A stretch of DNA of 54,396 nucleotides from Rhizaria sp. SCN 62-66 (Eukaryota): positions 1 through 54,396 of the forward strand of contig MEDY01000195.1 of the NCBI GenBank assembly GCA_001724265.1, written 5' to 3'. Made by a program: the position numbers and the translations under genes. How positions within the stretch are numbered: position 1 is the first letter of the stretch; every line of letters starts with the position of its first letter. This document shows, piece by piece, positions 885 through 43,014 of this stretch. Under the pieces are notes generated by a model. That model was not told where the DNA came from. It saw only the letters and a program-made list of their open reading frames with translations, and ran no database searches.

Positions 885-933
<49 letters not shown>

Positions 934-6900: not shown

Positions 6901-7988
6901 ACGCGGCACAGCGGCGCGCCCACGTGCATGGTGAGGATGGAGCGTACGCGGACCAGCGGCGTGGGCAACAGAGCGGCCGCGGCCGCGGAGCCGGCCTCGT
7001 AGGCGGCGGCGTAGAGCGGGATCGCGTGAGGCGCCACCGCGGGGTCCGCCGAGAGCAGGAATGGGTACAACGGGGCCAGCAGGTGGTCGCAGAGCGCGAC
7101 GACCGAGTCCGCGAGCGCCGACAGCGCGGCCGACACTTCACTGTCGCGGCGGAACGAGAGCGCCGTGCGTGACCGCTGTTCCGCCAGCGCCGCCGCCAGC
7201 TCCAGCGCCAGCAGCGCCTCGGGGGGCGGGATGCCCGCGACCACGCCCGCGCCGGAGGTGGCGCTGGCGCTTGTGGCGGTGGAGGCGGAGGCGGCGGCGA
7301 GCGCGGCGGAGAGGAACTGGTCGACCGAGTTGTCGACGAGGGCCTGGAAGGCAGCGACGGAGGCGAGCTTGCTGGTGATGAGCAGCGCGAGCCGCGAGTA
7401 GGGGGAGCTCGGGGGCACAGGCGCGGGCGCCAGCGCGGCCGGCAGCCGCCACCAGTACTGGCCCTGCGTGCCCCGCATGCCGTGGGCCTGGGCCTGGGCC
7501 TGGGGGCCCTGGGGCGGGAGCTGGCCCTGTTGCCGCAGCTGCGCGTGCAGCGCGGCCAGGTCGCCCGCAGCCGCCGCGGCCGTCTACACCAGCACGGCGT
7601 GCATGGCGGCGCAGCGCAGCGAGAGGTGGTGCTGCAGCAAGCGGCGCACGCCGTCCTTCTCGTCCTCGCCCGCGGTGGTCCACACGAGACGCACCTTTTC
7701 CTCGACCAGCGACGCGCCGTAGTGTTGCGAGTGCGCCGCCGCGCACAGCGCGCTGTCGCCGCCCTGCAGCAGCGCGTGCGCCACGTCCCACGCGTACGGC
7801 GACGCCGAGAAGGCGTTCAGGAGCGTCTGCGCCGTGGGGTCGCCGGTGGTGTAGCAGGCCGAGATGATGGCCAGCAGCGTGTCGGCGGGGGGCGGCGCGG
7901 AGGGGTCGATGCCGAACGGCGCGCACGCGGCCGCCAGCGCGGCGAAACGCTCGTCAGCGGCGGCGGCAGCGGCGGCGGCGGCGGACAT
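438..7988 (-). CDS. Importin-beta family karyopherin, importin-13/transportin-SR-like (~2,341 aa, expanded by low-complexity inserts; one in-frame TAG)
   Basis: Exons 7988-6456, 6286-5903, 5695-4784, 4634-438 join in frame across AT-rich GT-AG introns (7026 nt); stop is TAA. The N-terminus LLNAFSASPYAWDVAHALL...HYGASLVEEKVRLVW resembles an IBN_N domain. The C-terminus AWLSDAFAHPQFPAVHIAAEDR...KFRLFVTDLAAVMRG resembles the end of importin-13. The model requires reading through TAG at 7586-7584. Confidence 0.8.
867..935 (-). repeat. CAG/CAA trinucleotide repeat encoding 23 Gln in the karyopherin
   Basis: A ctg/ttg run on the + strand translates to Q23 in ORF 438..4682. Confidence 0.9.
7584..7586 (-). 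other. In-frame TAG (codon 135) inside karyopherin exon 1
   Basis: ...GTG CTG GTG TAG ACG GCC GCG... ORF 7584..8321 and ORF 6393..7478 are in the same frame, separated by 105 nt of open GC-rich sequence. Confidence 0.85.
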
Positions 7989-9855
7989 GGTTCGGCGCGA
8001 GGACGCGGGCGCGTGTCTGTCTGGGTGGGGAGGGGGGCGGGGGGAGTGTTCAGTCAGACTGCGGTTGCGACTGAAAGGGTTACAAAGTGCGGGCGCGGGC
8101 GCAGACGCGAGAGGCACGCGCAGGGGCGGAAATGGGCGTAGAGAGTGTAGTGTGTAGTTGCAAGGGAAGATGATGCGCAGACAGGCGCGGAGATGGAGCC
8201 CGGGGGGGCGTGGATGCGAGGCGGGACGATGCGACGTCGGCCGGGCTTGCAGCTGGGAGAGACAGGTGTCTGGAGGGCTGGAGCGGCGGATAAACGAAGT
8301 GTTAAGAGTAGATTTAGGCAAATTCGTGCATGCAGTGATTAAGCGCGGTGCATATTTTCAAAGGCATATTGATTGTGGCGACAAAAACCAGGGTAGGAGT
8401 GCGGGAAGAGGGGGTGGAGTGAGAGGGAGACAAAAGCTCTATAGGAAGGATTTGGAGGAGATGCGGTCGTCACAGACAGAAATCTAATTGTCCACAATAT
8501 GCAATCAAGTCACAAACATCCGTGTTTGAAATTAGATTTCAATCTAAGATAATGTCGAAACCGGTTGAAGCGGAAATGCATTCGCGACCAAGCGTCTCGG
8601 TATCAGAAGAGCTGGGCTTTTTTTGCGAACCACAGCGGACGCGCAATGACCATGACCAATGATGACAAAAGTTCAGGCTTGTGACCGCATCGATATAAAG
8701 CACAGTTTTATTTGGAACATCTGCAGTAGCATAGCACAGGCGCTGTTTTCTCTTAGTGTTAATGCATGGCATCACGAGATTGTGCTGAGCTAATGCTGTC
8801 AGGAGTGAGGAGATTTTGCCATGCTCGAAGTTGAGTCGAAAAGGATAAGGGGCTGAGTTGTTTAAGTGGGTCATGTTTGAATGTGTATGTTATGTAGTTT
8901 TTAAGGTGGTCAAATGTGTGCTGTTGCGTTTAAAGGAGTTTGTTCAGTCATGCTCTCATCGCTGTGGACCTCAATCGAGGTCATGCTTGCTGTTCGCAAC
9001 AAAGAAAGTAGACAATGCTACTTGCGATATTGGATTGTAATGGCTACGATATGAATTAATCCCCGACTTTAGTATGCACATATACTATTTGTATTCTCTT
9101 GTGTGGTTTCATATCTTTACGCTGTACTCACGCCTCTAGAATGGTTGTGAGATGAGAGACTCGTTTCATGGTTATTGAGTCTCGGCTTTCCGTAATCCCA
9201 CGTCTAGTGCGTCGTAGAAAGTGAAAAATGACGTTCAACCTCGATTCTATTATTGTTACATGCGTGCAAACCACCATGTATGTTAATTTGATTGCCTAAT
9301 GTACACCTAAGACTGATGTTGCTTTACAGTGAGGCCTTGGGAGACAAGCAAGGAGGCAAAGACATTTGGTGGCGGGAGAATAAAACACGCAAACGCTGCG
9401 TGTCAATTTGCCCAGATCGACACCAACGACTGCGGCGTATACATACAGGCATTGCATATACTATATTCAAACGACAAACTCATATGTGTTGATCTTCTAT
9501 CGATTACGCCTCGATATGTGCTTTGCGTTGGATTCCTCGTCTTGACGGTCGAGGACGAGTCAGCAGGATCAAATCGCATTGGATCTCGATATAACCTCCG
9601 TCAAACGGGCTGCCACAAGCACGGCGCTACTAAATATGAGGTGATGTATTTGTCCCATTTACATCTTCACTATACTCTCTTAATGTGATGTCTAGCACCT
9701 CTTAAACTACCGCGCTCTCATCCGCGTCCAGACTCACCGTCCCTCTAATTTCCCTCGCACCGTCTGTCCAGTCCGTCTTTCTTTTTCTGCTCTCTTACAC
9801 TCTTGGCCAAACAACTCATCCTTGAGCGCCGACCCCCCATTGCGTGGCATTCACG

Positions 9856-10476
9856 ATGTCCACTCCCGACACCCCCAACGCTGCTGCCGCAGCCTCGACT
9901 GTTGTTGCTCCCGCTTCGGTCGACTCAAGCTCTGCCGCTGCCGCTGCCGCTGCTGTGAGCGTCAACAGCGACGCCACCGCTGCCACCCAGTCTAACTCTG
10001 GCAGCGACAGTGACCGCGATCATGAAAATGACGGCAATGTCAGTTAGAAGACTGACAAGGCTGACAAGGCCCCTGTCGTCGCGGAGGCGCCCCAACACGT
10101 GGACATCACGGACCCGCTGGAGATCAAGCACGCGCTCGACTCGGCGCTCTACTCGCTCTTCGTCGACACCTACGGCTTTGCGCCCAACAACGTGCTATCG
10201 AACATCCGCATCGCGCTCTCGCTCGCGGGCGTCGCCATCGCCGGCGTCGCCTACCTGGTCTACAAGGACCTGCAGTCGCCGCACCACGTCGCCATGTCGC
10301 ACGCGCTCATCCTCGCCTACTTCGCGCTGCAGGTCGCGCTGACCGTGTTTACCATGTACTGCGTCGGCAGCGAGCTCGCGCGCTTCCAACCCCTCACCGC
10401 CGACAAGGCTGGGAAGAGCGGTTCCGGCAAGGGCGGGGACAGCACGCGCGCTGCTGCTGCTGCTATCAATGGTGCT

Positions 10477-10511
<35 letters not shown>

Positions 10512-10959
10512 TGTGATGGAGCTGTCCGCGGCGGCGCGCGGGGTTGTGTCATCGCTGCAGTCAGCGCAGCATGGGCTGCGGATCACCACGTCGCTGCCCC
10601 ACTACGAGACCGACTACACGGTCACTTTCGTCGTACGTCTAGAGCGAAACCGCGAACCACTACTCTGCAACAAACCAAGAAACATATCCCACAATTGCAT
10701 TTTTATTACTCTTATTTAATATCTGAATCAATCGAAGCTGCAATCAATCTGTACATTTGTAGCTCATATTGACTCACCTATATGCAATCCTCTTTAACTC
10801 AACCCCCGCTTACCGCATCTTGTCTCCGCGCAGCTGGGCGAGACGACGTGGTCGCAGACGTTGCAGATCACCGAGTTTTTCGACACGCGCGGCGTCTTCC
10901 TGCCCCAGCGCTTCACCGACGCGATCGAGCTCGCCGCCGTGAACCCCAAGCACAAGTAA
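9856..10959 (+). CDS. SPCS2: Signal peptidase complex subunit 2 (SPC25 family), ~300 aa; one in-frame TAG
   Basis: Exons 9856-10632 and 10834-10959; stop is TAA. Motifs: DITDPLEIKHALD, YGF..NNVLSNIRIAL, two TM helices, C-terminal SLPHYETDY...ITEFFDTRGVF. The only in-frame ATG upstream of the domain lies before the TAG at 10045-10047. Confidence 0.85.
10045..10047 (+). other. In-frame TAG (codon 64) inside SPCS2 exon 1
   Basis: ...AAT GTC AGT TAG AAG ACT GAC AAG... The frame continues into ORF 10099..10719 (offset 51 nt). Confidence 0.85.
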
Positions 10960-11230
10960 ATGGGGGCACATTAAGAAAATATCTGTCGCTTGAATAGGTG
11001 GTTTGATGATGGAGACGCATGATACATTGTTAATATACTTTTTTACGTCTCAATTACGACTCTTTTTGTATTTTTTGTTCTTATTATTTGAAATGTGTCT
11101 GTACCTGCAATTGGTTAGAGACAAATGTGTCACTCTTTGTGGGTGGAGACATAATCATACTGAAAGATTCATTTTTGAAAAAAACATTTTGTATTCCGAA
11201 ACAACGTGGATTTCTGCACAGAATGCAGTT

Positions 11231-11244
11231 TTTATTTGAATAAA
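11231..11244. terminator. Putative back-to-back poly(A) signals (TTTATT-TG-AATAAA) between the convergent SPCS2 and giant ankyrin genes
   Basis: AATAAA on + at 11239-11244 and on - at 11236-11231, in the AT-rich gap between the two stop codons. Confidence 0.4.
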
Positions 11245-11342
11245 TAAAGTACAAATATTACAATGAATTACCCCCATCAATGTAGCTATCTTATATCAGC
11301 TAAGTATTATCATTCGATTATTTTGTTCAGTTAAGTTGGTGT

Positions 11343-14300
11343 TCACTCGAACAGGACAGTGAATCCGCGCTCCTCAAGCGCCTTGGCCGACAACGGCATC
11401 GCCTTCCTGACCGCACTGGCACCCCGGGCGGCGGCGCCCACAGCAGCGTCGCCAGTGGCAGTCGCAACAGACTCGGTGTGGACGTGCACGTGCGCGTCCT
11501 CGACAACGATCTCGACGCCGTTGCTGTCGACGATCACGGCGTCTACGATGTCGGCGCGAATGAGCTGACTGGCGTCGCCGTCGGAGTCACTCACGCTGCC
11601 CGCGCTGCTCTTCGCACCCTTGGCGCTGCCCTTGCTCGGGCTCTTGGCCTTCGTAGGCTTCGCGGCGGGGAGCGCGACGTTGCTGAGCCCAATACTGGCC
11701 CACACAGGCAGCTCTTTAACCAGCACGGCCGCGCCCACCAACGGCCGCAGCGCGATCTTGGTGACGGTGAGCGGGCCCACCGCGCTGTCCACCGTCGCTG
11801 TCACAGGCGCGGGCACTGTGTGGACGGAGCAGTCCGCCGCGGGGACCGAGGCCGGGCGCGAGACCGCGTCCGCGGCCTTGGCGACGGCGGCGGCGACGGC
11901 GGCGGCGCTGAACGGCTCCGCGCCCACGGCCGGCGCGTGGTGCACGATCACGGCCCAGTTGAGCTTGTTCTGGATGGCCGCGGCGACGGCCACCGAGTCA
12001 GTGGTCACCGCCACGGCCGGGTCCGCGCCCAGCGCGAGCAGCACGGCCGTGGCGGCGTCGTCGCCGCGCATCACCGTGTCCTGCAGCGGCGCGCGGCCGC
12101 GGCTGTCGGGCGCCGAGACCGAGGAGCCCGCCAGGGAGAGCGCGCGGATCAGCGTGGCGCGCGACGGCGGGGCCGCGAGCGCAGCCAACGACGACAGCTC
12201 CAGCGGCGAGGCCGCAGTGGCAGCACCCGTGTTCGAGGCGTCGTCGAAAGCGAAGGACGTGTTGACGACAGTGGTGAGCGCTCGGAGCGAGGCGAGGTCG
12301 CGGAGCAGGAGCCGGTGGTCGAGCTCGCTCCACAGGGACACGGCGGCACGCGAGCCGGCGGGAGTGTCGTTGTCAGGATCGACGAGGTCGTCGCCGACTA
12401 CGAGTTTCGTGGAGGCGGCAGCGCGGGCCAGCCAGCGCCGACTCTCCTCGTTGCTTCCACCGGAGCCGGACTCAGGTGCAGAGTCACGCAGCCGTTGCTG
12501 TTGCTGTTGCATCTGCGCCTGCGCCTGCGTGTCGAGACCGAGGATAGCGGCCGACACGCCGCACACGGCCTCCGCAGATTGCGCGCGGTACAGTGCGCTG
12601 CCGTCGCTGAAGTTCGCGGCCGCGGCCTCCTTGGCCGCCGCCTCGGCCTCGGCCTGGGCCTCAGCCTCGGCCACCGCGGCGCTCACCGCGAGATCCATGT
12701 TGCCCGGGGCTGCCTGCGCCCGCGAGCGCGCCTCAGCCGCCACGACCGCCGCCGCAGAGCGCACACTCGCGCCACTGCCACCGCCACTGCCGCTGCTACT
12801 GCCGCTGCTATTTCCGCTGCTATTGTGGGTATTGCTGTGGGTATTGCTGAGGGCGGGCTCAGTCCAGAGCGCGACGTTGTGCGCCCAAGAGCGGCTCGTG
12901 TCGCTCCAGAGCGCGTCGGTGCCCGCAGCAGGGGCGCCGGCGGCGAGCAGGATGGCCGCGGCCACGGCGTTGCGCGAGCGCAGTGCGATGATAAGCGGCG
13001 TCTGTCCGTCCAGGTCCGGCGCGTGCAGGGCCGGGGCGCTGCGCCGCATGCGCGTGGCCGCCTCGCCCGTCGCCGCAGCCGTGTGGCCCGTCTGTAGAAG
13101 CGGGGACGCCACGAGGCGCGCGGCCGCCGCGGGGGACAGCGGTTCTGCGCTCTCATTGGTGCGCATGCCGAAGTTTCCGCCGAAGATGTTCCCCGCGCTC
13201 TCGTCGTCCGTGTCCGGGACAGCGCCGTCGGCGTCGCTGGTGTTGGCGTACACAAAGTCGAGGAGGAAGCGCAGCAGCACGGGGTCGTTCCAGCGCGCGG
13301 CGGCGTGCAGCAGACGGCTGCCGTCGACCTGCGAAGGCTGGCTCGCCGCCGCGGCCAGCGACGCGCGCACCGCCTCGGCCATGCTCGCGGGCGCCGGCGC
13401 GCGCGACACCGGCGCGGCCGAGTCGCTGGCGGCAGAGTCAGCAGCAGGAGCCATGTTGCCGTTGCCGCGACGGCTGCTCTTACCCCTGTTCCTCTTGCTC
13501 GCGGTCGCGTCCGAACCCGGCGGCGGAATGAGGCTGCTCGTCTCCTTGGCGTGCAGCTCTAGCAGGACCTTCCTGCGCGCGCCCACCCCCATCAACGACA
13601 CGGGCGCCAGCAAAGCCCAGTGGAATGGCTTCACCGACGGCGACTGCGACGACACCGACGACGGTGACGAGGCCCACGTGTTCGGCCCAGCAACAGCGCC
13701 GCCAAGCTTGCCCCGGCGCGCGCTGCCGGGCCCGCTGGTGCTGCAGTCAACGAGCGCGCGGAGCGTCGGGTGCGCACGCATGGCGGCCCGCTCGCGCAGC
13801 GCCCAGGGCAGCAGGCGGTCGACCTCGGTCCACTGCTCCCACGCCACGCTGCCGTCGTCGTAGCTCTTGTAGTAGTAGTTGGCGGGCGAGGGCTTGTAGA
13901 TGCTGACGCCGCCGCTGCTGTTGAGCGGCACGGGCGGCCGGCGGACGACTGTGATCGCGGTGCCGTCGTTGCTACGGAGACTAGTGGTACGGCTGCGCGC
14001 CGAGGGCTTGACACTCGCAAAGGAGGATACGTACTCGTGAGTCTCAGCAGCGACAACACTGCTGTACTCGGACGCGGGCTCAGTGTCCGTCTCCGTCTCT
14101 GTCTCAGGCAAGGTAGGCTCAAACTCAGCCACGGCCCCAGCATCGGACTTCACCGCGTCACTGCCAATGCCGCTGCTGCTGCCGCTGGCTCTGATGCCGG
14201 TGGAGTTCGTGCTCTCGCTGCTGCCCTGTCCGAGGAGCTTCATCTGGTCGGCAGCGTCACCGCCACCCAAGCCGTCAGGACGCAGCGCCAGCGCGGCGAC

Positions 14301-17300
14301 GAGGACCGCACCGCGGGTGGCGGCGCTGGCTGCCGCGGCGGCGGCCTCGCGGCTGAGCATGAGGCGGTGCGGCAGCTCGGCGCCGAGCACGCCCGCGCTT
14401 ACGCGATGCGCGCCGGCGACGCCCACGCGCCGCGTGTCGGGACCCGTGACCGTGGGCACCGAGCCCAGCGCGCGCAGCGTGGAGCGTCCGGCGCGCGTCT
14501 CGGCGGCGGAGAGCACGGCCAGCGCCGCGGCGCGCGCGGCAGAGACCACGACCGCGTGCTTCGCGCCCTGCGCGCGGAGGCGCTGCTGCGTGGCGCGGGC
14601 CGCCGCGCGGGCCAGGTGGTTCACGTTCACGAGGCCAGAGTCGGCGCCGTCGGAGACGTTGGACTTCCACTGCGGAGGCAAAACAACAAAGAAATGCGAG
14701 CGAGATGCAATAAAGTTGTGAGCAGTGTGACGGGGAGATACAACACGATGTTTGCTTAAGGACTAAAAGATACGCATTACCAGGAAATTGGATAGAAGAC
14801 ATCGATAACAGGTCATTTCAGTGAGAGGATATGCGTTTCAACAATACAAGTGTGATATGATGCGATGCGATGCGAGTCCGACGTACGAGGTTGATGACGT
14901 CCGAAGCGGCCGCCATGGCGGACTCGGACATGTCGACCAGGTCGCTCATGACCGAGGGCGCCGAGCTCGCGGTCGCCGGGGGCATCATCTTGGTCACCTC
15001 GGCGTAGAAGCGCTGCACGACCTCGGGGTTCTGCGCCTGGATGCGCTCGAGCCCGTCGACGGCGGCGGCGTCGCCCGCCGCGTCCGCGGGCGCGTCGGCG
15101 TCGCCCCAGGGCTCGGCGAGCGCGGAGAGCGGCACGCCCGTGCTGCGGCTGATGCGGCGCAGCTGCGTCATGGAGAAGGGCATCGAGCTGTGGCCGTGGT
15201 TGTCGTCGCTGCTGGGACGCTTGCTGACGCCAGGGCCGCTGGCGCCGGCGATGGCAAGGCTGTTGCCGCCGGCGGGACCGCTCTTGCCTTCAAGCAAGTG
15301 CTGCTGCTGCTGCTGCTGATGCGGGAGCTGGTCGAGCCGCTGCGCGGGCGCGCGCGCCTGGAGCTGCGTCTGCGCGCGGCCGGCGAGGCGGATCACGTTG
15401 CTGATGGCCGTGCGGAGCACGCGCTTGTGGGTCGCCTCGAGCCGGTGGTAGTTGAGCATCGACGCGATCGCGCTGTCGCCGCGGCGCGGCGGGCTGAACC
15501 AGCTGCCCTGCGACGACTGCGCGCCCTCACCCTCGTCTGCGCCCAGACCGGCGCCGGCGTTCATGCGGAGGCGGGAGGAGCGCGCGCCGGCAATGCCGCG
15601 CGCGCTGGCGCTGTGAGCCAGCTGACCGTGGCCGTGGCCGTGGGCGAAAGTGTCGCCGCTCTCAGTGATGGTGATGGTGTGGGCGTTGGGCCGCAGCGCC
15701 GAGGTGGGCGGCGTGCGCAGCGGGAACGAGACAATATTGAGGCGCCGCGCGAGTTCCTCGGGGATGGCGCGCGCCACCACCGAGCTCCCGACATGCGGCT
15801 GCGCCTGTGAGCCCGCGCCCGCGGCGGCCGCGTCGGGCGGGACGTCGGCGCCCGCGACGGAGACGTACTGCGCGGCCACCCGCAGCTGGTGCTGCTCTTG
15901 CTCGTCCAGCAGCTCCTGCGTGAGCGTCGGCAGCGGCATGCGCAGCAGCGGCCGCGACTGCAGCAGCGACGCCGACGACGCAGGCGACGCAGGCGCGACG
16001 CCAGCACCAGCAGTGTCGGCATGCGCGTGCGCGTGCTTGCCCGCGGTCTCCGACTCCCTCGTCACCGCCTCCTTGATACCTCCTTCCCGCTCGGCCTCGG
16101 CCTTGGCCGCGGCCTCGTCCGCCTCGACCTCGGCCTTGCGGCGCGCGGCCGTCACGGCGGCGTTCATCTGCAGCGCGAAGAGCGTCACGCGAGCGCGCTG
16201 CTGCTCCTCCCTCGTCACGAACGCGGCGTTCTTGTTGGGGAAGATGAAGTAGTCGCCGAGGCCAGCGTGTGCGCTCAGGTCGCCGGCATCCAGACGCCGC
16301 GCCGTGTTGGCCAGCGAGCGGGTGCGCACGGCCGCGTCGGCGGCGAAGGCGGCGGCAAGCACGGCCGAGTCCTCCGAGCCGCCCGTCTTGGCGCAGCCCT
16401 TCTTGACCTTATCGCCCTTCTGACTCACAGCGTCGCTTGCGTTGGCGTTGCCGTTGTTGTCAAGGAATGAGAACGAGTTCCACATTTGCATGACTTCCTG
16501 ATCGCGGCTGCGCACAGCAGGCACGCCGGCGGCCCCATTACCGTCGACAGGCGCGTCCGCGTTGGGACCCAGAGCGGTTTCGGCCGCGCTGTGCGCGTCG
16601 ACAAACGTGGCCGGCGTCGCCGCGTCGTGGTCCGAGACCTCATCCCCACTGTCTGCGTCGTCCTCGTCCGCGTTGCTGCTAGTGCGCTCGCCGGCGGCGA
16701 CGTGCGCCGACAGCCGCTCCGCGAAGCCGCGCAGCACGGCCTCCCTGAGCGCGTTCTCGTAGAGGTGGTTCACCGTCACGCCGGCCTCGGTGCGCATGCC
16801 GCCCGTGGAGACGCGCATGCCCGACCCCGAGCGCTGCGCGAGCGAGACCCACTCACCGCCTACGTACGGCGTGGAAAATGGGGTGAACCGAAGCCGCGCC
16901 TGCTGCGGCTTCGACGCTGGGATGGCGTCGTCCGCACTCGCACTGCCTTCCAGCGCGTCGGCGTCAGCGTCGGCGTCGGCGTCCCCGACAGTCGCGGTCG
17001 CGATCGCGGCCACGGTCGCGCCGAGCCTGTCTTGGTAGCGCGTCGCGGCGAGCGCGGTGATGTTGCGGGCCACGGTCGGCGCGTGCTGGTCCAGCGCCGC
17101 CCCGAGCGCGCCGGTGCCGCGCCGCAGCTCCGCCAGAGTGACCTCGCGCGCCAGCTCGTCGCGCGCGCTGGAGCCCGTCCTCGCGCCGGCCGCGGCTGCG
17201 GTGGAGGGGTCGAGCGCGGCCAGCATCCCACCGGCGCTCACGGGCGTCGCCGCGGCCGCCGCAAACTGCGTCACCAGGCTGCCGGCGACGAAGGCCCGCG

Positions 17301-27964: not shown

Positions 27965-28004
<40 letters not shown>

Positions 28005-29786: not shown

Positions 29787-30258
29787 GCGTAGCCCACGAT
29801 TAACGCGCGTGCGGCGCGCAGGAGCGAGTGAAGGGGCACTGAGTGGCCGGTGTCGGGAACGCGCGGGTTGAGCGGGACAAAAGTCTTCCGCGAGTGAGGA
29901 AGGAAGGTTGCCTAAAAGCGGGGTTAAACAAGTTGATTGAGGTAATTAATGAAGGGTATTATACGCCGTTAAAATTCAAAGTTAAGTTCAATTGATAGTC
30001 GCTATCCACGATTGCAAGATGAGACACGCAGGTGTTTTTGTTCACGGCTGGGTTGGCGTGTTAGTTGATCGGTGCTTCTCTCGTCCGAGGCACTGGGCCG
30101 AAAAAATCAGCGCGCGTAAACATATTTGGTCGCTTTCAAAGGTGATATCAGTTGCGAAAAAAATCATAGAAATATGTATTCAGTAGGGTTACTATGGTAT
30201 TATTGTTCTATCAACGTTACATTCTATGTATCCTTTGTTAGGCGGGTCATATCCCGTC

Positions 30259-33200
30259 TTATGTGCGTTTCACGTGCCCCGCTGGCGCCACCCCGCGCTC
30301 GTCCGTGGTCACCACGACGCCCGCCCAGGCCCTGGCGCGGCCCCCGGACAGCGCGGACACGCAGCCGCAGCTGCACCTACTGTCGCTGCGATCGGCAGCG
30401 CTGTCGTCTCTGAGCGTAGCCGTCGCATCGGCCACTGCCCGGAGACCCGCGACGACAGCCGGGTCATCCACTCCGGCATGAGAACTTGCGCTCGCGCTCG
30501 CACTCGGTTGTTGCTGCTGCTGCTGTTGCTGCTGAGGCGTCTTGTCGGCCAGCGTCGCCAGCGGGGGCACCGCGGTGACGGCGAGCAGCAGCGCGTTGCC
30601 GGTGACAGTGCCGTCGACCGCCGCGGCGCGCACGTCTTTGATCAGGCCGCACGCGCATGCACAAGCGCCGCTCTTGCCACCGCTGCCGCCGCTGCTGCTG
30701 CTGCCGCTGCTGTTGACTGTGTTGTCGCTGATGTTGAGCCTTTGCGCCATCAGCGTCTTCATCGTGTTGGTCCTGAGGTACGCCCCGCCCCGCTCGTCGG
30801 CGTAGCCCAGGGCCACCGCCGCGGGGGCCAGCAACAGCCGCCGGTCCACGCCCAGGCCCCACACGCGGCCTAACTTCGGGCGCCAGACGCCCCCCGCGGC
30901 CCCACTGCCATACTGAGCGGTATCAACCTGCGCACTGTGACCGTGACTGTACGCACTCGCACTGCCGCCAGCGCCGCTGCCGCCGTGGCTGCTGACGCTG
31001 CTGTTGTAGTTGTAGTAGACGCCGTTGGTGACGAGCACGGCGACGCCGCACTCGCGGGCGATGCGGTGCAGCAGTGCGGTCACCGCGGTAACGAGGAGAG
31101 ACACGCGCGCCGCCGAGCGCATCACGACGTCGCCGGCGGCGGTGGCGGAGACCAGGCGCACCGCGTGCATGGGGGGCTTGGCAGGGCTACTCGCATTCGC
31201 ACTCGCACTGCTGTCGGCGGTTGCGCTGGCGTTGGCCGCCACGCTAGGGTTGGGCAGCCCAGTGATGGTGGTGTAGAAAACGCTGGTGTCGATGGGCCGG
31301 CCGATCTCGCGCCGGCGCTCCTCAGCCGCAGCCTCGGCGATGCCGTGAGCCAGAATCGCGCCCGTCGCCGCAAACACACGGTCCAGACAGGGCAGCACCA
31401 GCAGCGCCACGGGGGGACGCGGCTGCGCACCGGTCCGTGGCTGCTGCAGTGAAGCCTCGCGTTGCAGTTGTTGGCCAGGCTGTGTAGTGCTATTGGGCGC
31501 AGACACAATCGCACCGAGCGTGGCAGCGGTGGCGGCGGCGGCGCCCACGGCCCGACCCCATTCGCGGCGCGCGCGCAGCAGCGTGCGGTGCGTGTGCGTC
31601 AGCAGCGATAATAGCGCAAAGGGCGTCGCTACCGGGGCAACCTCGATGCGGGACAGCGTGGAGCCGAGGCCGGCGGGCAGACGTGCTGCGACTGCGGCGC
31701 CGGACTGCACAGCGGCAGTCGCACTCGTCGCGTTCGGCACAGCACTGGCGCTGGCACTGGCACTCGATGAAGCAGAGTGAGAGCTCAAACTTCCGAGCGC
31801 GGCGCTGGTGGCGTTGTTGCTGCTGCTTGGATTGAGGAGTGCCGAGGCAAGGCCCGATGCGAGAGTGACTGCGTGGTCTAAGGGGGTACTCAAACCCGAC
31901 TTGAAGTAAGGCCGCATCGACGCCGGGAGGAAAGACAGCCGTTGCTCAAAGCCGAGCGCCGCGCCGAGGTAGTCCGAGACTACGTTGGGGGGGCTGAGGT
32001 ACTTGGCCTGGTTATGGAGCGCTCCCGTCGACTGAGTGTAGACGAGGTCAAGAAGGTAGGCGGCTAAGTAGGTCTCTGAGGGGACGTCTAAAGGCTTTGT
32101 GAGCCGAGGCCACACATCAGCCGCATGAAGCATCGGCACATCAACAACGCTTGAGCTCCCACTGTGGCGTATCTCGGCGTCACCGCCGTCTACCTTAGTC
32201 TTATCGTCACCGTCGGTGAGGCCAGAGACCGGGACGGCAGTCGTCGCCGTCCCACGGCCACTCGAGTCCACAGCCACGCCCAGCGAGTCGCCAGCGCGAG
32301 CACCGCTGCTACTAGATGCGATGTCCTTTGCCTCGCTCGGCTGCTGAGAAGTCGCTGGCGGAAGAACGCTGTGAGACGAGCGAGAGATGCGGACAGACAT
32401 GACAGCTCCGCCCCCACTGCGAGGGCGCTGCTGCTTCTGCTGCTGCTCATGTTGTTGCGGCGAGCGTTGGGACCGCAACTCTTGCTCTCGCTGCAGTAAC
32501 GACTGTGACAGAGGCTGGGCATTCGACTGCCACCGTGTCCGTGGCAGCTGAGACTGTCGCGTCTGAGAGCTCTGCTTGTTATCTTCAGCGGCCTCGTCGT
32601 CAGAGTTGTCCTTCATGTCACGGTCAAAATCACTGGCAGGCTGCTGGGCACCGAAACCAGCCTTCGACTGCGCGGTAACGACTGAGGGCGCGGGTAGCAG
32701 CGGCAAGTCAATCATCTCTGGCGACTTCGGCCGCGCTACTGGCGGGGCCTCTGCCGCAATGGGCTGAACTTGCGAGGCTGTGACGTCATCGCCAGCGCGC
32801 CCACTGCTTGCGCTGTCACTGCTACTGCCACTGCTGCTCACAGTCATTAGCACACCGTCGTGCACTGCATTAGCACGCAAGCTCGCTGCACGCATGTCAG
32901 CGCTCTCAGCAGCTGCAGGCGCGCTGCTTACAGCAGGGCTGCTCTCTGCAGTGCTCTGCTGCGCCTGCGTCTGCGCGGCGCTGGTGACCGCAGTCTGTGC
33001 CGGGCCACGCGAACGGTTCATCTGCACGCGCACCGCTTTCGATGACCCTGACGTTGCTAGCACAGCCGCAACGTCGGTGACGCCGATGACCACGATGCTT
33101 GCCGCGGGCGATGCCACGGGTGCGCTTTCGACGCCATCGTGCAACTGCTGCTTCTGCGCAGGCTGAGACTGAGACTGCGACTGAGCGTCCTTCTGCCGGG

Positions 33201-36200
33201 ACGGACGGCGCGATGGCGACTGGGAGTAGCGGTACAGCTTGTCCCTCTGTGACAGCATAGCGCTACTCTGCACGTCGCCCGTGTAGGAGCCTCCTTGATT
33301 CAGCATCAGTCTCTCTGAAGCAGACGCTGGTAGTGGAGGAGAGGAGACAAACGCCGCAGCACCCAGCGTCACAGCAGCAACGACAACCCTGCTCTCGCCG
33401 CTTTCCGAGTCAGAACCGAGGAGATCGCTCCCTCCGCTGCGCGACTGCGAGAGTTGCGCCTCTTGCTGCTGTCGCGCATGCTCTTGCGACATGATGAGCT
33501 GCTGCGCCTGCTGTTGCGACAGCAGAGTCTTCGATTGCGACAGCAGCTGCTCGACAGCTCCGCCGTTGCTACTGGTACGCGTGGTCTGCGGTGCCGTGGA
33601 AGCGCTGCCTGCGGCAGGAACGCGAGGGCGTGGGGGCAAATAAAGCGCTTGTGACAGCACATGTAGCCCGGCCGTCTTGGAACCGTTATCGTAAGCAGAG
33701 GCGCTGTTGTTGCTCGATTGACGTTGCGAAAGTAACGTTGCATGTTGTCTTTGGCTTTGCAGCTGCGGCGAAAGCTGAGGCGGCTTCGCATCTGAGCGCG
33801 ACTTGACTTCGCGGGCAACGGCAGCAGCACTACGTTCGACGGTCATGCTGAGCACAGTCTGCCTCTGGGCCGGAGACAGATGGGTTCCGCTCTGCTGCTG
33901 CGAAAGCATCCGCTGCGACATCGACAATGACCATGACAGTGAACGCGACTGTTGCTGCTGCTGTGAGAGCAAACTCGCACTTGCACTGGCGCTTGCACCG
34001 CCCGAATGGGACTGATGCTGCTGCAGCGAATGCTGCGAGAGAAAGCTCGTGACCGCGGCCATGTCCTGCGTCAGGTCACGGGTTCCAGCGGTTACCGTCG
34101 TGTGCAGCCGGACCAGCGGCACGTCCTCCTCCTGCCCCTCGCCGTACTCGACGCTGCCCTCCAGGTCGCCCCCGAGCGACTGCTCCTGCTCCAGCTCCAG
34201 CTGCGCGGAGCTCGCATGCGCACTTGCGCCTGCGCCTGCACGAGTGTTGGCAATGACTCTACTCCGAGTGGTTAGTGCCGCGGCCTCGGCTGAGAGCGGC
34301 TCAGGTGAAGCAAGCTGCACAAGCCTCTCACGCCCACGCTCACGATTAACTGTGACAGCGCCCCGGTTCATGTTGGCGCCTACGCTGGCTTGTTGACTCG
34401 GCACAGACTGCACGTGCAAGAATGCACTCAAAATCGGATTGCTGCGAGTCGGCTTAACCTTCACTGAACGCGGACTTCCGCGCTTCGCCTTTGGTTGCTG
34501 TTGCTGCTGCATTTCGTGCTGCTGCTGCTGCTGCCGCCACAGCCTCTGCTGCTCCTGCCGCAGCCGCGCTTCCTCGCGGCTCGACTGCGCAGCAGACTGC
34601 GAGAGCAAGGCAGACTCAGATTGGGACAGCAACAGTGACTCTGACTGGGACAGCTCAAATGCAGCGGAGTCAGCGCTCGCAGTAACATCGATGGGATTAG
34701 CTAGAGCAGCAGTTGTTGTTTCCGCCGATGCTAGCGGCGTCACTTCAAGAGCCAAGTCCTCATCAGCGTCTCCATTAGCAGTGTTGGCGTTGTTGTTAGC
34801 AACGCCATCGCTATCAGTCATCGCAAAGGCGGCTTTAGGACTGGTCATGTTGTTGTTGATCACGTTGTCGTCATTGATGTCAAGACTGATGTCGATAGCG
34901 CCCTCATCGTCAATGACAACGTCACTGCCATCATCATCGCCACCCGTGGTGCTCCAGCGCGTGATCCCTGCGGGCGCGGTGCTGCCACGAGGAGTACTAG
35001 CGTTGCGCGGCACGGGTGACGTAAGACTGAGACTGATCTCGTTGTTGGTTTCATCGTCAATAGCTATGACATCGCTGTCTGGATGCTGATGAAGAGCTGG
35101 TGTTTGAGTCACAGGAGTCGACGTGGCAGAGACAGGACTGATAATCACGTTGTTGCTTTCATCATCATCGTAAGATGCAAGAAGCCCAGCTGCATCTACA
35201 GGCTCAGACTTTACAGCAGAAGTCGGCGAGTGCACAAATGTTGCAACAGTCGCTGCCAGATGCAAGGGGATAGTCGGCTTAACTTTTGCAGCGGCTTGAC
35301 TTTCGAACGAATGGCGCCAGGCGTCGAGGACACGCTTGCCTCGTTCTTGATCATCCCCACCAGCAGCAGAGCCGGCGCGTGCCTTGGGGCGATCATTGTC
35401 TCTCACGCTCATACTTGCTGGGAAGCTCACACTCTCGAGAGAAGCATCGATGCCAGCAGCAGTTGCAGCAGCGGTGGCAGCGTTAAATAGGTCCGTTGCA
35501 AGGTCGCTTGATGCGGTGCCTGAGGCCGTCTTGGAGTCCAGGTATAAACTGCTTTGAGTTAGAAGCTCCTCGGGTGTCACCGTAAGCAAACCAACCTTGC
35601 TTGCGACAGTAACCGCAGCAGTTGCAGCAGTCAACCGTTCGTTGGCCAAGCGCCGATCAGCACTGACGTTGGGCGATGCAGCATCAGCTTTCGGGAACGT
35701 AATTTCGTCAAAGCTCGCCACCGCTGCGTCCGCTTCGACACGGACGACAGCAGCCGTGTCATTGTCGCTATCCGTACCGCTGCCATCGGGGTCGTCACCC
35801 CCGTCGGTCATATCCATCGCGGCAGCCTTCGTGTCCGCGCTTGGGCTCCCGTGCGCACGGTGGGAGAAACGACCTGGTGACACTTGGCCGTGACTGGCAA
35901 TGGTATCACTCTGTCCGGGGATCTTGTGGGGACCGCTGGCGCCACCGCGGTCTGATTTATCGTCACGGCTTAACTTCTCGCTCAGGCCGCTGCGTCGCCG
36001 GGCCTTGCGGTCGCGCAGCAGCTGCTGATGCTGCTCCTGCTGCTGCTGCTGCCACAACACGAGCCGCTGCAGCCGCTGCGTCTCCTGGTCCCGCTCGCGG
36101 TCGTCGTGCTCCTGCTCGCGGTCATGGTCGACCTCGGAGCCACTGCGCTGCGGGTGCTGCTGGGAGTGGCGCTGGCTCCAGTGCGACTGCCCGCCTTCTT

Positions 36201-39200
36201 GGGACTGCGGTTGCTGACTGCGGACATTTGTGAACTGGGACTGCGACATCATGCTGTGTTGACTGGCGGCGGCGAGGGCTGCTTGGCTTTGCCTCACTTG
36301 GCTCTGCGCGCCAGTTTGGCCCCTCTTAGCCTGACTGGCACCAGCGACGACTTTAGCGAGAATGTGATCATCATCATCATCTTCGTCTTCTTCTTCATTG
36401 CCGTCACGGCCACTTTTCATTTCCGTACCGTTGTCGTTGTCCATGTGAACGTGATCAGGAGACGTATCAGCCTTCTCAGTCGAAAGCTTAGGATTACTGT
36501 TCCCAGGTTCAGCCGTACTGGGCTCAGTCGCGCTCGCACTTGTGTTGCGGTCTGTCATGGTCGCGGTTGCAGCTGCTGCGCTACCGACGCTGACGCGGGG
36601 CACTCTGTTCTGCTTCTGCGCGGGCAACGGAACCGTGCAAGGCAAGTAAGCACTGATCAGGGCGTCGTGCTCGCTCGCTTCGATAGCTGTATCAATTGTT
36701 GGAACAACCGATGTAGCTGACCCAGTCGCAGTTGCTGCAGTTGCCGCAGCCGCAGAAGCAACGACGGCAACATGCGCTTTCTCCCACGCCTTGAGCGCGT
36801 TCACGACAAACCCGCCGTCGCAGGCACTGTCCGCGCCAGCGTCAGCGCCCAGTGCAGCCCGCAATACAGTGGTTTTGTTCTGCGTCGTGCGTACGTCATC
36901 ACTCGTCTGCTCCACAGGATGCTGCGCAGACATGTGTTGTGTCAGCGCGCTGATCGCTTCCGTGAACTTGAACCGCATCCACTCCTCGGCCGCTGCATCG
37001 TCACCGCTGCCGGCACGATCGCTGTGAGTGTTGTCGCCTGTGGCAATCGCAAGGACCGCTGCGACCAACGCGCGCATCGAGTCGCTCTCGTCGCGCTCAC
37101 AGTCACTCGGTGTGCAACTTGCTGACTCAGCAGGCTCGCTTGACTGGGGCTGAAAGAGACCGAGAGTGGAGCCGCCGCTGCAGTCAACCCACATGACGCG
37201 CATCGGCGGCAGCGGATTCGCAACACTACCATTCACAATGACATTATTTGCGTCCATAGCGCCCGTGTCCGTGGTGCTGCCTGCGCTGGTAAGGATCGTG
37301 TCGAACGCGCGTTTGTGGCTGTAATAAGATGTGCCGAGACTGTTGCTGAGAGCCTTTGCAGTTGAAACAGTGCCTACACTGACCCCAACACCACGACTCA
37401 GAGTCGACGGGCGACGCGCAATATGAGTCTCAGACTCGTATTCATCACTCATTGTGATCAATCTCTGGCCGGTGGCAATGGGAGCCGTCGTATCAGACTC
37501 GATCTTGAAGCTGCTCTCATTGATATCCGCGTTATCACGAGTGACTGTGAGCGCAGTGACCGTGGGTCCTAGCACGGTCTCCACCCGCCGTGACGCCGCC
37601 AGCATTGCAATCTGCGCGGCTAAACATAGATGCGCGGTCCATGCCTAAATGAAAGAAAAGAGAAAGAAAAGTTGTTATGTGAGCTATAAGGATGTCATTA
37701 TAGATTTTAATAAAATTGTTCCTTGCAGCATGACAGGATGAGTCTCGTACTTGAGTGTGCGCCGGAGGGGCAAGGAGCTCGGTGATGGAGCCGGCGCGCA
37801 AACCGAAAACGCCGATATCGTGATCGTGGTGAGTAGGATCAACAAAAGTTGCACAAGATTTCGACTGCAACTGCGTCTTTGCCTCTGGCTTAGACGCATC
37901 TGGTGCAGTTGCCGTCGCAGGGACCGGCTCAGGACAATATGGCGGCAAAACGACCTTCAGCTGTTGTAGTGCCGTTTCTTGCCGCAGCTGTGGGCGGTTG
38001 CCGCTTCGGCCACCAGACGGCGACATAACAGTCAAAGGTGACTGCGAGCCATGGGCCGACTGTGTCCACAACGGAGCGAGCGACTGTGCGCGCATCAAGT
38101 GTGAGCGCATCAACTGTGAGCACACCAGCGGCTTGGCCCAGTCCAGCCTCGCGGCCTGCGCCGCCCGCGCCAGCGCCGCAGCGAGCCGCATCTGGTGTCC
38201 GTGGGCCGCGCACGGCACGGCAAGCAGGCCAGCGTCGCGGGCGCTTACGTATGCACTTCCAAAGGCACTTACATCAGCGGCACTCGCGCTAGAGACAACG
38301 AGCGGCTTGACGTCACGAGAGTCTGCGAGAGTAGTGTTCGCGGTCGCGCTTGCGTGGTCGCCGCTCATGTTGCTGTTGCGGCGGCGCAGACGCGGTTGCA
38401 GTGGGGGCGGCGGCAGAAGGTTTCGAATGAAAGCCGCGCCCGCAGCCGCTGGGTCAACCTTCACAAACGCCGCCGCTAAGCCCTTCTTCTGCCACATATG
38501 ACTGCTACCAATACTAGAACTGGTGTTTACAGTTTCGACCTTGGGCATATCTGAATGGCCAAGCGTGACCGCAGGCAATGCGCCATTGCCGCTAAATGCG
38601 AGCGCATCACCGGTGGTGGCTGCGGACCCTGTGACAACGTCGCTCACAGCGGACCGTGGGCTTGAGGACTCGAATGGCGGCTGTATCAGCAATAGAGGGG
38701 TTCGCGCGTCGATGGCGCCCGGCCGGCTAGCAACCGAGTCCACCGAGCTGCCCAGCAGAGCGTCGATGGCGCCAAAGCCGCTGCTCAGCAGCAGGGGCAG
38801 CGCGGGCAGCGGCGCCGGAGCCGGCAGCGGCACCGTCAGCACTGCCATATCAGACTCAAAGTGAGCGTGGGGCTCGGACGCGTCCGTCTTCGCGCCAGTG
38901 ACCGTGGGCACTGACTGAGCGACCGTGGGCACGAGAGCGTGTGGAGCGTAAGTACTCGCGTCAGTCTCGCACACGAAGACGCTTAGCGCCACGTCGAACG
39001 TCGTCGTAACCACGCTCGCACTGGCACCTACACTGGTCGCAGAGTTAGCGTTAGCTGAGCCGGCGACGCGACTCTCGCGCTTCGGCGGGGTGCCGCCGCG
39101 ATTCGCCGGCGACGCGTGCTTCGCAGTGTTACTTTTCCGCAGCGTGTGCACACCAGCTGCAGTCCCAGGGCCTCTGCCACTCGCGGCGACCGAGTCGATA

Positions 39201-40731
39201 TCGAAGTCGGCGAAGCTGTTGCTCACAGTCACCAGGCTGCTCTCGATCCAGGCCAGCGCGCTGCTCTGCGCCGCGGCCCGCTGTTGGCGTGCAGCGCCGT
39301 CGGCCGCCGCAAGTACGCTGTCAGTGACCGTGCGCAGCAGCTCCTGGCGGTACTCGCTGAGCAGACGTTCCCAGTGAACCCTGGACGGAGAAACAAAATA
39401 TAAGAGAATGTCAAGGTGAGATAAATACAATGAGCCAAACTAATATACCGCATCGACATTTACAAAGGATACGCATTAAACATCATATTTAGCGTATTTA
39501 TCGAATAAATCGTCGTTTTGTGAATGTTCACGCACCTTACGAGTGCCCTCGCCTCGTCCTCGGCCCGCTCCGTGGCGGCGACAGTCGCGAGCATGCGCCT
39601 CGACCGCTGCCCCGCCTCGGCGGCCGCCCGGGCCAGCAATACGCGCCGCAGCCGCAGCATCCGGCGGTGGCAGCGCGTGAGCCCGCGGCCCAGCGCGTGC
39701 AGCCAGCGGCGCTGCTATGAGAAAGCGGGTGCCAGCGGGGCGGTGAGCGCGTGCGCCGCGGCTGAGTAGGGGCACAGGAAGCATGGGTTGCCGACCAAAG
39801 TAACCGGGGGCGCGGAGGTGTAAGTGCTCGCGCTGGCGTCTAAGTGGCCACGGTCAGTGACGGCTTCGGCATCGCTAGCGTCGTCGCTGGCGTCATCGAC
39901 GATGTTCTCAGTGCGAGTATTAACTGTGAGGGATGCTGATGCGGTTGGAACGGGAGCCGCCTCTGCATCAGTCATGGACACAGTATGATCAGCAGCCCTC
40001 CCACTGCCACTGCCACTGTCACTGGCAGTCGCACTTTCACTCGTACACGTACTGCCACTGCCAGTCCCAGTCTCAATAGCAGAGGCAGTTGCATCATGAG
40101 CACCCGGCTCGTGAACTTCAGTCTCTGTCAAGACACCAGGTCCAGCCCCACCCGCAGCTGCGGCTTCCGCCTCGGTCTGCAGCATAGCTTCGTTGTCTGC
40201 GATGACGTTGCGACTCGTCTGCACGCTGTTGTAACGGAGACGAGTCGGAGAGTGTTCTGCAAAGGGACTCAGTCCCCTCAACGCAGCAGCGCGCCCAGTC
40301 CGAGGAGTAAATGCAACGCCAGCGTGAGCACCGCGGGCGCTCGCAGCGGGACTCGCGCCGCCGTCTGCGCCTCGAACGCTGGTGCTGCCATGGGCCCCGG
40401 TGCTAGTGTTATGGGCGCGAGCGTGTGCAATTGCAGTGCTGGAGCTGCCCCTCCGAGGGGTGGACTGCTCGCTGTTCAGCACAGCTGTCGCCGCCCCAGG
40501 GGAACGGATGTTAAACTGCGAGCCAGGGGTAGCGTTACTGCTGTTGCGACTATTCTGCGCAGCGGCGGCGGTTGAGGCAGAGTCTGCGTCTGAGGCTGAG
40601 GAGGCAGAGGACGTTGTTGGAGTCACTGGCGCTGCAGCGGTGGTTGCCTTTGTAGCGGGGCTCGGACCGTACAGTGGCACGGGCGTCGTTGGCACAACCC
40701 TGCGCGGGGTCGTGCGGCGGTGTGTGCTCAT
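30259..40731 (-). CDS. Divergent RAD51-paralog/RecA-fold-like protein (~3,403 aa) with a very large SQ-rich insertion; one in-frame TAG
   Basis: Exons 40731-39536, 39380-37751, 37644-30259 (10,212 nt); stop is TAA. RecA-family motifs appear in order: GFGAIDALLG, GLRAGSITELLAPPAHTQAWTAHLCL, RVMWVDCSGG, LSRIEV, VALLVLPCLDRVF, LLHRIARECGVAVLVTN, RPKLGRVWGLGVDRRLLL. The model requires reading through TAG at 39717-39715. Confidence 0.7.
39715..39717 (-). other. In-frame TAG (codon 339) inside exon 1 of the RAD51-paralog-like gene
   Basis: ...GCT TTC TCA TAG CAG CGC CGC TGG... The frame continues into ORF 39460..39660 (offset 54 nt) and on to the splice donor at 39535. Confidence 0.8.
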
Positions 40732-42684: not shown

Positions 42685-43014
42685 CGTGGAGGAAGACGCC
42701 GAGGCGCTTCCGGAAGTAGATGACGGCTTCATCTGACACTGACGTACTAACCTCAGGTCTCAGAGAGCTTACTGACGGTATGCTGACGGCAATATCCATC
42801 GAGGAAGATTGAACTACGTCACTCCCTCGGCCAGCCTTGCTCTAAGCAAGATCGGTTCGTAAAAAATGCCGGCCGACCGTTGACTGAGAGACGGGAAGGT
42901 TCCTCGTCAAGAATCATCGAGATTGACTTCTTCTGATCGTCACATTGTATCATCTATCAACTATCAGACTTAACATAACGCCTATATACTCTGTTTTTAT
43001 TTTATAGCGCCCAC

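Follow-up and report, generated by a model that had tools for sequence, protein, structure and literature searches.

Does UAG still mean stop in the nuclear genes of this organism? The window analysed here is the whole 54,396-nt contig MEDY01000195.1 (assembly GCA_001724265.1, Rhizaria sp. SCN 62-66), which comes from an uncultured wastewater eukaryote of ≈ 70% GC. Among its ≈ 10 adjacent genes, three and perhaps four carry one in-frame TAG each. The initial annotation, based on three of them, read this as a probable variant nuclear code with UAG as sense and UAA and UGA as stops. We find that the TAGs are real DNA and lie in frame within the coding sequence of otherwise intact genes; they suggest, without proving it, that UAG is read as an amino acid.

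Results

Three otherwise intact genes contain a single in-frame TAG

The three genes and their TAG codons are as follows.

438 to 7988, minus strand: gene 1, giant importin/exportin-like gene; exons 7988-6456, 6286-5903, 5695-4784 and 4634-438; 2341 codons; terminal TAA
7584 to 7586, minus strand: in-frame TAG of gene 1, codon 135
9856 to 10959, plus strand: SPCS2 (SPC25 family); exons 9856-10632 and 10834-10959; 300 codons; terminal TAA
10045 to 10047, plus strand: in-frame TAG of SPCS2, codon 64; GAG in a sister strain
30259 to 40731, minus strand: gene 3, possibly Rad51-like at its C-terminus (a lead only); exons 40731-39536, 39380-37751 and 37644-30259; 3403 codons; terminal TAA
39715 to 39717, minus strand: in-frame TAG of gene 3, codon 339

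The TAG was the sole internal stop in each spliced model, across four exons in gene 1, two in SPCS2 and three in gene 3. As the initial annotation had described, the frame stays open after each TAG up to a normal splice donor (GTATGT at 6455, GTACGT at 10633 and GTGCGT at 39535, respectively). In gene 3, GTAAGG was tried as the donor and rejected, since it breaks the frame, which GTGCGT five bases further restores. Two neighbouring genes served as controls.

11343 to 29786, minus strand: gene 2; six exons, 5867 codons, zero internal TAG, TAA or TGA; terminal TGA
41215 to 42732, minus strand: gene 4, Vps26-like by eye; four exons, 318 codons, without internal stop; terminal TAA

No in-frame TAA or TGA was found in the spliced models of genes 1 to 4 or SPCS2, and the nine terminal stops comprised six TAA, three TGA and no TAG, both as previously noted; for genes 5 to 8 the terminal stop was taken from the last open reading frame and its codon-usage frame only. 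Under the standard code, zero TAG in nine terminators has a p value of 0.04 to 0.23. We also scanned symmetrically for single stops flanked on either side by 60 or more open codons; by our reading of the resulting list, nothing but the three TAGs lies in the coding frame of a modelled exon. The remaining same-frame entries were AT-rich introns, off frames or antisense frames, with zero TAA or TGA cases.

The sequences flanking the TAGs score as coding. By GC3 and codon-usage log-odds, the TAG frame ranked first of six on both sides of the TAG in gene 1 and in SPCS2, and GC3 in gene 1 was 0.90 to 1.00 in the same frame over 360 nt on either side. Upstream of the gene 3 TAG, the TAG frame was again the best of six; over the 59 codons downstream the codon score was ambiguous, with a GC3 of 0.85 to 1.00.

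SPCS2 was identified correctly at the outset: exon 1 matches profile positions 1 to 82 of Pfam SPC25 (PF06703) at E = 2.2e-14, its 54 bits exceeding the gathering score of 24.3. The domain begins 25 residues past the TAG. The stretch from the TAG to the domain lacks an in-frame ATG, and the sister strain has a sense GAG codon at this site; the position of the TAG is therefore coding.

Gene 1 had a single homologue, P0007 (1273 aa), among 1.84 billion representatives. BLASTP aligned the two proteins in collinear segments that lie on both sides of the TAG and reach into each of the four exons (gene 1 residues 37-129 with E = 2e-11, 388-466, 542-635, 1219-1297 and further segments). The TAG itself pairs with Q116 of P0007, at a low-confidence alignment end beside a 67-residue insertion. 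The annotated label karyopherin keeps some backing from P0007, which resembles exportin/importin-beta clusters by language-model features (0.95; a lead only). It gained nothing from Pfam, in which neither gene 1 nor P0007 had a match (IBN_N and Xpo1 models included), or from a PDB sequence search with gene 1 (nothing significant; best E = 0.79). Much the same holds for the label RAD51-paralog-like of gene 3: its C-terminus is a language-model look-alike of Rad51-family clusters (0.87; likewise a lead only), and Pfam and PDB sequence searches with gene 3 gave no match.

When gene 1, exon 1 of gene 3 and exon 1 of SPCS2 served as protein queries, the searches gave back either fragments of the window itself or nothing; 8000 candidates were scored in these searches, and low-complexity words crowded them. 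A contig scan found no relatives among bacterial and archaeal genome contigs, and the sole match in a metagenome scan was contig L001, which is identical to the window.

A possible fourth TAG at the edge of the window

A putative gene model at the edge of the window contains one more candidate.

186 to 188, minus strand: possible fourth in-frame TAG, in an edge gene with its ATG at 269-267; putative model

On either side of this TAG, GC3 and codon-usage log-odds rank its frame first of six. Near position 120, where there is no GT-AG intron, the reading frame shifts, and Pfam gave nothing significant for the edge gene. A plus-strand gene ending in TAG at 220-222 was considered and rejected; its GC peaks at the first codon position, which marks it as the antisense shadow of a gene on the minus strand.

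In GC3-rich DNA such as this, GC3 stays high in one antisense frame too, and most of the stops that break this frame are TAG. Because an antisense frame can thus mimic the signal of a sense TAG, the sense-strand reading of the three genes was confirmed.

TAG is rare, 5'-proximal and without a common context

UAG is not in wide use as a codon here: gene 2 has zero TAG in 5867 codons. Genes 1 to 3 together contain 2 TAG versus 415 CAG, and ≈ 60 TAG would be expected from the TTG/CTG ratio; TAG is thus ≈ 30-fold rarer than a neutral synonymous (Gln) codon would be. All three TAGs are 5'-proximal, within the first 6 to 21% of the respective coding sequences (Fisher p = 0.037). The stretches around them are of low complexity and poorly conserved, and hence no conserved column reveals the encoded residue. 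Neither GAG, the single-step neighbour at the SPCS2 site, nor the Q aligned in gene 1 points to Leu, and Gln or Glu fits best, without the data fixing the residue.

The observation that TAG alone, never TAA or TGA, interrupts these frames had been offered as an argument for reassignment. It is weak evidence, because in coding sequence as GC3-rich as this a random nonsense substitution produces TAG in ≈ 70% of cases; three out of three then has a p value of 0.34.

Programmed readthrough, raised earlier as an alternative, finds no support in the sequence around the codons. Leaky contexts include C at +4 and the motif CAR-YYA. The base after TAG is A, A, C and A at the four sites, CAG directly follows the TAG in gene 3 only, and the four sites have no motif in common. 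Decoding of the pyrrolysine type, which is not known from eukaryotes, was set aside.

UAG may be translated

We infer that UAG is translated as an amino acid in this organism, a reading that we regard as plausible although still short of probable. The parts of the original proposal that stand are the real in-frame DNA, the coding flanks, the failure of introns to remove the TAGs (see below) and the absence of TAG from nine terminators; translation itself is a further step, and several of the supporting arguments proved weaker than first presented. The ribosome would insert an amino acid at UAG by means of a cognate CUA-anticodon tRNA or by efficient suppression, and UAA and UGA would terminate. 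UAG would then be a very rare codon (≈ 0.2 per 1000 codons), probably poorly decoded or recently captured, and tolerated chiefly where sequence close to the 5' end is disordered. The window contains neither tRNA genes nor eRF1. In these data, a fully reassigned codon looks the same as one that is leaky or has a dual use.

A rival reading: true premature stops under the standard code

The TAGs could instead be true premature stops under the standard code. They would be nonsense alleles specific to this strain and fixed in it, tolerated either because they come early in genes that are long and have disordered N-termini or because the genes are dispensable or beginning to decay. We consider this somewhat unlikely. 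Premature termination codon polymorphisms are found in wild microbial strains as single in-frame stops in intact genes that vary between strains, and the present TAGs resemble them in both respects. At position 10045 there is a T in run X2 and in L001 and a G in X4 and X9, which represent the sister strain and give GAG. This strain is ≈ 99% identical to that of the window, and ≈ 2% of codons differ between the two; a difference at the only site for which a second strain could be compared would suit a recent and perhaps deleterious allele. The mutational bias towards TAG, the 5'-proximal positions and the scarcity of TAG relative to an ordinary sense codon all agree with premature stops, as do the in-frame ATGs that follow the TAG after 36 codons in gene 1 and after 18 in gene 3. 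The frame change of the edge gene near 120 could be a second type of lesion.

Against this explanation, three or four of ≈ 10 neighbouring genes would have to be freshly disabled, a density well above that which we take to be usual among yeast strains. Genes 1 and 3 and SPCS2 lack the several lesions of a decaying gene: their 6044 codons contain no frameshift or other stop, and no splice site of their six introns is lost. Runs from two studies, one of 2015 and one of 2017, carry the same TAG alleles. Gene 1 would lose an N-terminal block that it has in common with P0007, and SPCS2 has no usable start downstream of its TAG. Finally, reinitiation in eukaryotes is inefficient after upstream reading frames of 63 to 338 codons, the lengths that precede the TAGs here.

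Possible removal of the TAGs from the RNA

A second explanation also keeps the standard code and lets the TAGs disappear before they reach the ribosome, through unconventional GC-rich or short introns, alternative first exons or RNA editing, or else holds that the 5' ends of our models are wrong. We judge this to be quite unlikely. The 14 modelled introns are 106 to 241 nt long, with a GC content of 0.32 to 0.44 and a GTNCG donor in 13 of the 14. In-frame intron candidates that span a TAG and combine a consensus donor with a YAG acceptor numbered zero in SPCS2, zero in gene 3 and 37 in gene 1, and every one of these 37 has a GC content of at least 0.71. The best of them would delete residues aligned to P0007. 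A 111-nt candidate of the form GTGCGT...TAG (7694-7584) is 71% GC, encodes residues aligned to P0007 and was likewise rejected. Ordinary introns do not explain the TAGs.

Some features do suit removal or wrong models. The 5' bias is what mis-modelled first exons would give, and non-GTACG donors do exist (GTGCGT, GTTCGT and GTATGT). A pyrimidine-rich, acceptor-like stretch precedes the gene 3 TAG, and a perfect GTACGT donor lies at 40052, 338 nt upstream of it, with a 15-codon, ATG-started mini-exon in matching frame. In SPCS2, the AG of the TAG is a possible acceptor for donors at 9762 or 9771, and the edge gene shifts frame without a recognisable intron. Set against these, all candidates have a GC content of 0.59 to 0.76, outside the range of all 14 real introns. 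The sequence upstream of the TAGs scores as coding in the TAG frame, and gene 1 aligns to P0007 right up to its TAG. The 338-codon open frame upstream of the gene 3 TAG has, by our estimate, a chance probability of ≈ 5e-5 at 62% GC. In the polyA run X7, no listed contig covers a TAG; its contig 6107-6338 includes intron sequence and so says nothing on splicing or editing.

Sequencing or assembly errors as a further alternative

Errors such as CAG to TAG miscalls, the remaining alternative of the initial annotation, are extremely unlikely and for sites 7586 and 10045 are excluded as read errors, because both sites read the same in the window, in run X2 of a different study, whose contigs show 0 differences across 7253-7948 and 9058-10333, and in the JGI metagenome contig L001 (0 mismatches in 7057 of 7057 bases). 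L001, like run X1, may be the window's own source; X2 is not.

Discussion

If the TAGs are premature stops, they are ordinary strain-level variation. If UAG is translated, the organism would be an independent, non-ciliate case of UAG-only reassignment. Within the latter reading, we tentatively entertain an early stage of UAG capture in an organism without a close sequenced relative: UAG would no longer end genes and would be translated, probably as Gln or Glu, while being ≈ 30 times too rare, confined to 5' regions and turning over between strains. Such a genome, if real, would be a natural snapshot of the intermediate predicted by models of code change and rarely seen in a nuclear genome. The combination of a rare UAG with turnover between strains could make early reassignment testable, including the old dispute over whether codes change through codon capture or through an ambiguous intermediate. 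The TAGs matter in practice as well. Gene callers that use the standard code cut such genes at the TAG, and public collections list pieces of gene 1, of 134 aa and 361 aa, as proteins in their own right.

Very few lineages are known to have reassigned UAG alone in their nuclear code, and in the excerpts of the two reports considered here those lineages have UAA as the preferred stop (PMC5304391, PMC11687900). Since the known lineages already use UAG widely, they say little about the first capture of a stop codon.

In the rhizarian exLh (Sainouroidea), UAG encodes Leu and the stops are UAA and UGA, with 384 in-frame UAG in 71 genes, as given in the excerpted part of Panek et al. 2017 (PMC5304391). 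According to the same excerpt, many of these UAGs occupy conserved Leu columns, whereas here there are three or four TAG per ≈ 14,000 codons and none at a conserved column. In Iotanema spirale (Fornicata), UAG encodes Gln at hundreds of positions, 231 of them at highly conserved columns (PMC5304391, in part); this again differs from the three or four found here. Phyllopharyngean ciliates read UAG as Leu or Gln, with suppressor tRNA-CUA genes identified and "widespread usage" in the words of the excerpt (McGowan et al. 2024, PMC11687900). Unlike these ciliates with widespread UAG, the organism studied here has ≈ 70% GC and AT-rich introns of 106 to 241 nt.

The likenesses, taken from the same excerpts, are in the pattern of the stops and in the origin of the data. 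As in exLh, only UAG occurs in frame, and the true stops exclude UAG and are dominated by UAA (PMC5304391). As in I. spirale, UAG alone would be sense with UAA as the main stop, and Gln, along with Glu, fits the present sites best (PMC5304391). The phyllopharyngean case, too, came from metagenome data, with UAG alone reassigned and UAA the preferred stop (PMC11687900). Like exLh, finally, the organism is a protist outside the ciliates for which contaminating or environmental sequence is the only source (PMC5304391).

Gene models and terminal stop codons

GC content in the window was 0.54-0.74 (2-kb windows), ∼0.70 in the left half, and AT-rich islands lay within this GC-rich sequence. The window was found in bioreactor, wastewater, activated-sludge and fuel-cell metagenome runs of eight studies, which identifies the contig as that of an uncultured eukaryote. 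No tRNA genes were found in the window by ARAGORN.

Gene models and their stop codons
438-7988 (-): gene 1, giant importin/exportin-like gene; 4 exons, 7026 nt, 2341 codons; sole internal stop TAG at codon 135; terminal TAA
9856-10959 (+): SPCS2, SPC25-family gene; 2 exons, 300 codons; TAG at codon 64; terminal TAA
11343-29786 (-): gene 2, control; 6 exons, 5867 codons (17.6 kb coding); no internal stop of any kind; terminal TGA
30259-40731 (-): gene 3; 3 exons, 3403 codons; TAG at codon 339; terminal TAA
41215-42732 (-): gene 4, control, Vps26-like by eye; 4 exons, 318 codons; terminal TAA
Genes 5-8: last ORFs coding-scored in their own frame; terminal TAA, TAA, TGA and TGA

The tally of terminal stops in the initial annotation (nine genes: six TAA, three TGA and no TAG) was reproduced from the spliced models and, for genes 5-8, from the last ORFs. 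Pfam confirmed the SPC25 label of SPCS2. Pfam gave no match or weak ones only on the searched exon ORFs of genes 1-3, those of gene 2 being weak ankyrin repeats in the last exon; the proteins of genes 1-3 are rich in Ala, Ser and Gln. The karyopherin label of gene 1 found no sequence support in Pfam or PDB and stands as a lead, since P0007, a 1273-aa homologue, scored 0.95 to exportin/importin-beta clusters on language-model features. The Rad51 label of gene 3 is likewise a lead (C-terminus, 0.87 to Rad51-family clusters). By eye, the ORF at 43163-43681 (+) ends in a histone-H3-like fold with a divergent N-terminal tail and has the look of a centromeric H3 variant.

In-frame TAGs in coding sequence

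In-frame TAGs are present, as claimed, at 7586-7584 (-), 10045-10047 (+) and 39717-39715 (-), each the lone internal stop of its model. Contigs of X2, a sequencing run of a study other than that of the likely source, covered 7253-7948 and 9058-10333 with no differences from the window, and the JGI metagenome contig L001 matched 7057/7057 bases of 3277-10333. This identity spans the sites at 7586 and 10045 (those at 39717 and 188 lie outside it) and rules out sequencing miscalls at these two.

One frame kept GC3 at 0.90-1.00 across 360 nt to each side of the gene 1 TAG. On a codon-usage log-odds score trained on genes 1-3 minus the tested stretches, the TAG frame was the best of six both upstream and downstream in gene 1 (+0.57 and +0.57) and in SPCS2 (+0.43 and +0.83). 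Upstream of the gene 3 TAG it was again the best of six (+0.08; a model trained on gene 3 alone gave +0.24), and every other frame scored below zero; over the 59 codons downstream the score was ambiguous and GC3 was 0.85-1.00. There is no in-frame ATG between the TAG and the SPC25 domain of SPCS2. GC3 signals call for care, since an antisense frame in a GC3-rich genome can imitate a signal that TAG is sense: plus-strand frames opposite genes 1 and 2 (e.g. 1726-3000 and 23497-25917; GC3 0.88-0.95) are broken almost only by TAG (8 and 12).

A HMMER search of 1.84 billion representatives yielded one true homologue of gene 1, P0007, besides two fragments of the window itself, one of 134 aa that stops at the TAG and one of 361 aa that begins beyond it; a repetitive 2009-aa protein that also scored was disregarded. 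By BLASTP, gene 1 and P0007 are collinear: residues 37-129 with 10-110 (E 2e-11), 388-466 with 240-318, 542-635 with 339-432, 915-944 with 603-632, 1219-1297 with 728-804 and 1871-1922 with 1135-1184. TAG thus interrupts a single conserved protein.

A possible fourth in-frame TAG lies at 188-186 (-) in the edge gene (1-347 (-); ATG 269-267), with the same frame coding-scored on both sides. About 65 nt past this TAG, a one-base shift of the coding frame occurs near position 120, and no GT-AG intron lies close enough to account for it; the shift could be an assembly indel near the contig end, a real lesion or an unknown feature. The edge gene thus cuts both ways, as a further in-frame TAG yet possibly a damaged gene. 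Only ∼170 nt (438-269 (-)), with an AATAAA between, separate the gene 1 TAA from this next same-strand ATG, so tandem genes may be tightly packed.

Rarity and strain variation of TAG

Because three to four lone in-frame TAGs occur in otherwise perfect neighbouring genes and none of nine terminal stops is TAG, translation of UAG as a rare codon is the most economical single explanation, which we favour tentatively, at a little under an even chance. Entered as X, the gene 1 TAG was aligned by phmmer to Q116 of P0007, a low-confidence column and the final one ahead of an insertion of 67 residues specific to gene 1. At the SPCS2 site, 10045 reads G in X4 and X9, runs of two other studies that contain a sister strain (9 differences/1396 nt); the resulting GAG (Glu) is one step from TAG. 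Together these tentatively suggest Gln or Glu as a better fit than Leu. The TAG sites share no readthrough context (next bases A, A, C and A at the four sites).

Several observations weaken the REASSIGNMENT reading: mutational bias towards TAG, few terminators, TAG rarity, 5′ position and the sister-strain GAG. Computed from codon usage, 69-71% of stop-creating single-base changes in genes 1-3 give TAG, so that TAG-only sites have p = 0.34 (3/3) or 0.24 (4/4). If 15, 20 or 30% of genes normally ended in TAG, its absence from nine terminators would have p = 0.23, 0.13 or 0.04, respectively. Genes 1-3 contain 2 TAG, 415 CAG and 76 CAA codons; by the analogous first-position pair, TTG/(CTG + TTG) = 0.127, ∼60 TAG would be expected. 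An established codon would be far more frequent. Measured along the coding sequence, the three sites are at 5.8%, 21% and 10% (Fisher p = 0.037), all within low-complexity or non-conserved stretches. The chance of a given codon differing between the strains is ∼2%; the sister-strain GAG indicates that the position is coding and that its TAG is evolutionarily young or unstable. That the TAGs are true premature stops in this strain is a serious, less probable rival. In gene 1, the sister strain also carries insertions of 16 nt in intron 1 (at 6404) and of 6 nt, in frame, in exon 1 (at 7232); it has many intergenic substitutions as well (8431-8801).

Introns and possible removal at the RNA level

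A further serious rival, slightly less probable still, is that the TAGs are removed at the RNA level or that the 5′ models are wrong. The 14 modelled introns are strikingly uniform (106-241 nt, GC 0.32-0.44, in exons of ∼70% GC), with donors GTNCG (13) or GTATG (1) and a YAG acceptor after a pyrimidine tract. This signature could help to bin the organism's other contigs. Examples are 6455-6287, 26064-25885 and 10633-10833; a CTCAC-like motif was seen by eye 30-45 nt before the acceptor. Intron 1 of gene 3 requires the donor GTGCGT at 39535, as the reading frame is lost with GTAAGG, which lies five bases upstream.

We searched for frame-preserving introns with an organism-type donor, a YAG acceptor and the TAG inside or at the end. 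SPCS2 and gene 3 had none; gene 1 had 37, all of GC at least 0.71, and the best-looking (7694-7584) would delete residues aligned to P0007. With the frame constraint dropped, gene 3 offers GTACGT at 40052 as a donor; 338 nt downstream comes an acceptor-like stretch ending in the TAG, and a mini-exon of 15 codons that starts with ATG has the matching frame. SPCS2 offers donors at 9762 and 9771. These candidates have GC 0.59-0.62 and their use would discard coding-scored sequence; they are unlikely removers of TAG. No TAG was covered by any listed contig of the polyA run X7. One such contig (6107-6338) runs from gene 1 exon 2 into intron 1, so that library contains the organism's DNA or unspliced RNA. 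Errors, ordinary introns and untranslated leaders are disfavoured as explanations.

Comparison with known UAG codes

In PMC5304391, Amoeboaphelidium is described as a UAR-to-Gln case and not UAG-only, and the sainouroid rhizarian exLh, in which UAG is Leu, has 384 UAG in 71 genes, in contrast to 2 TAG against 415 CAG in genes 1-3 here. If UAG is translated, the organism would be a new non-ciliate member of the UAG-only codes, and its use of UAG would be unusually rare beside exLh, Iotanema and the phyllopharyngean ciliates.
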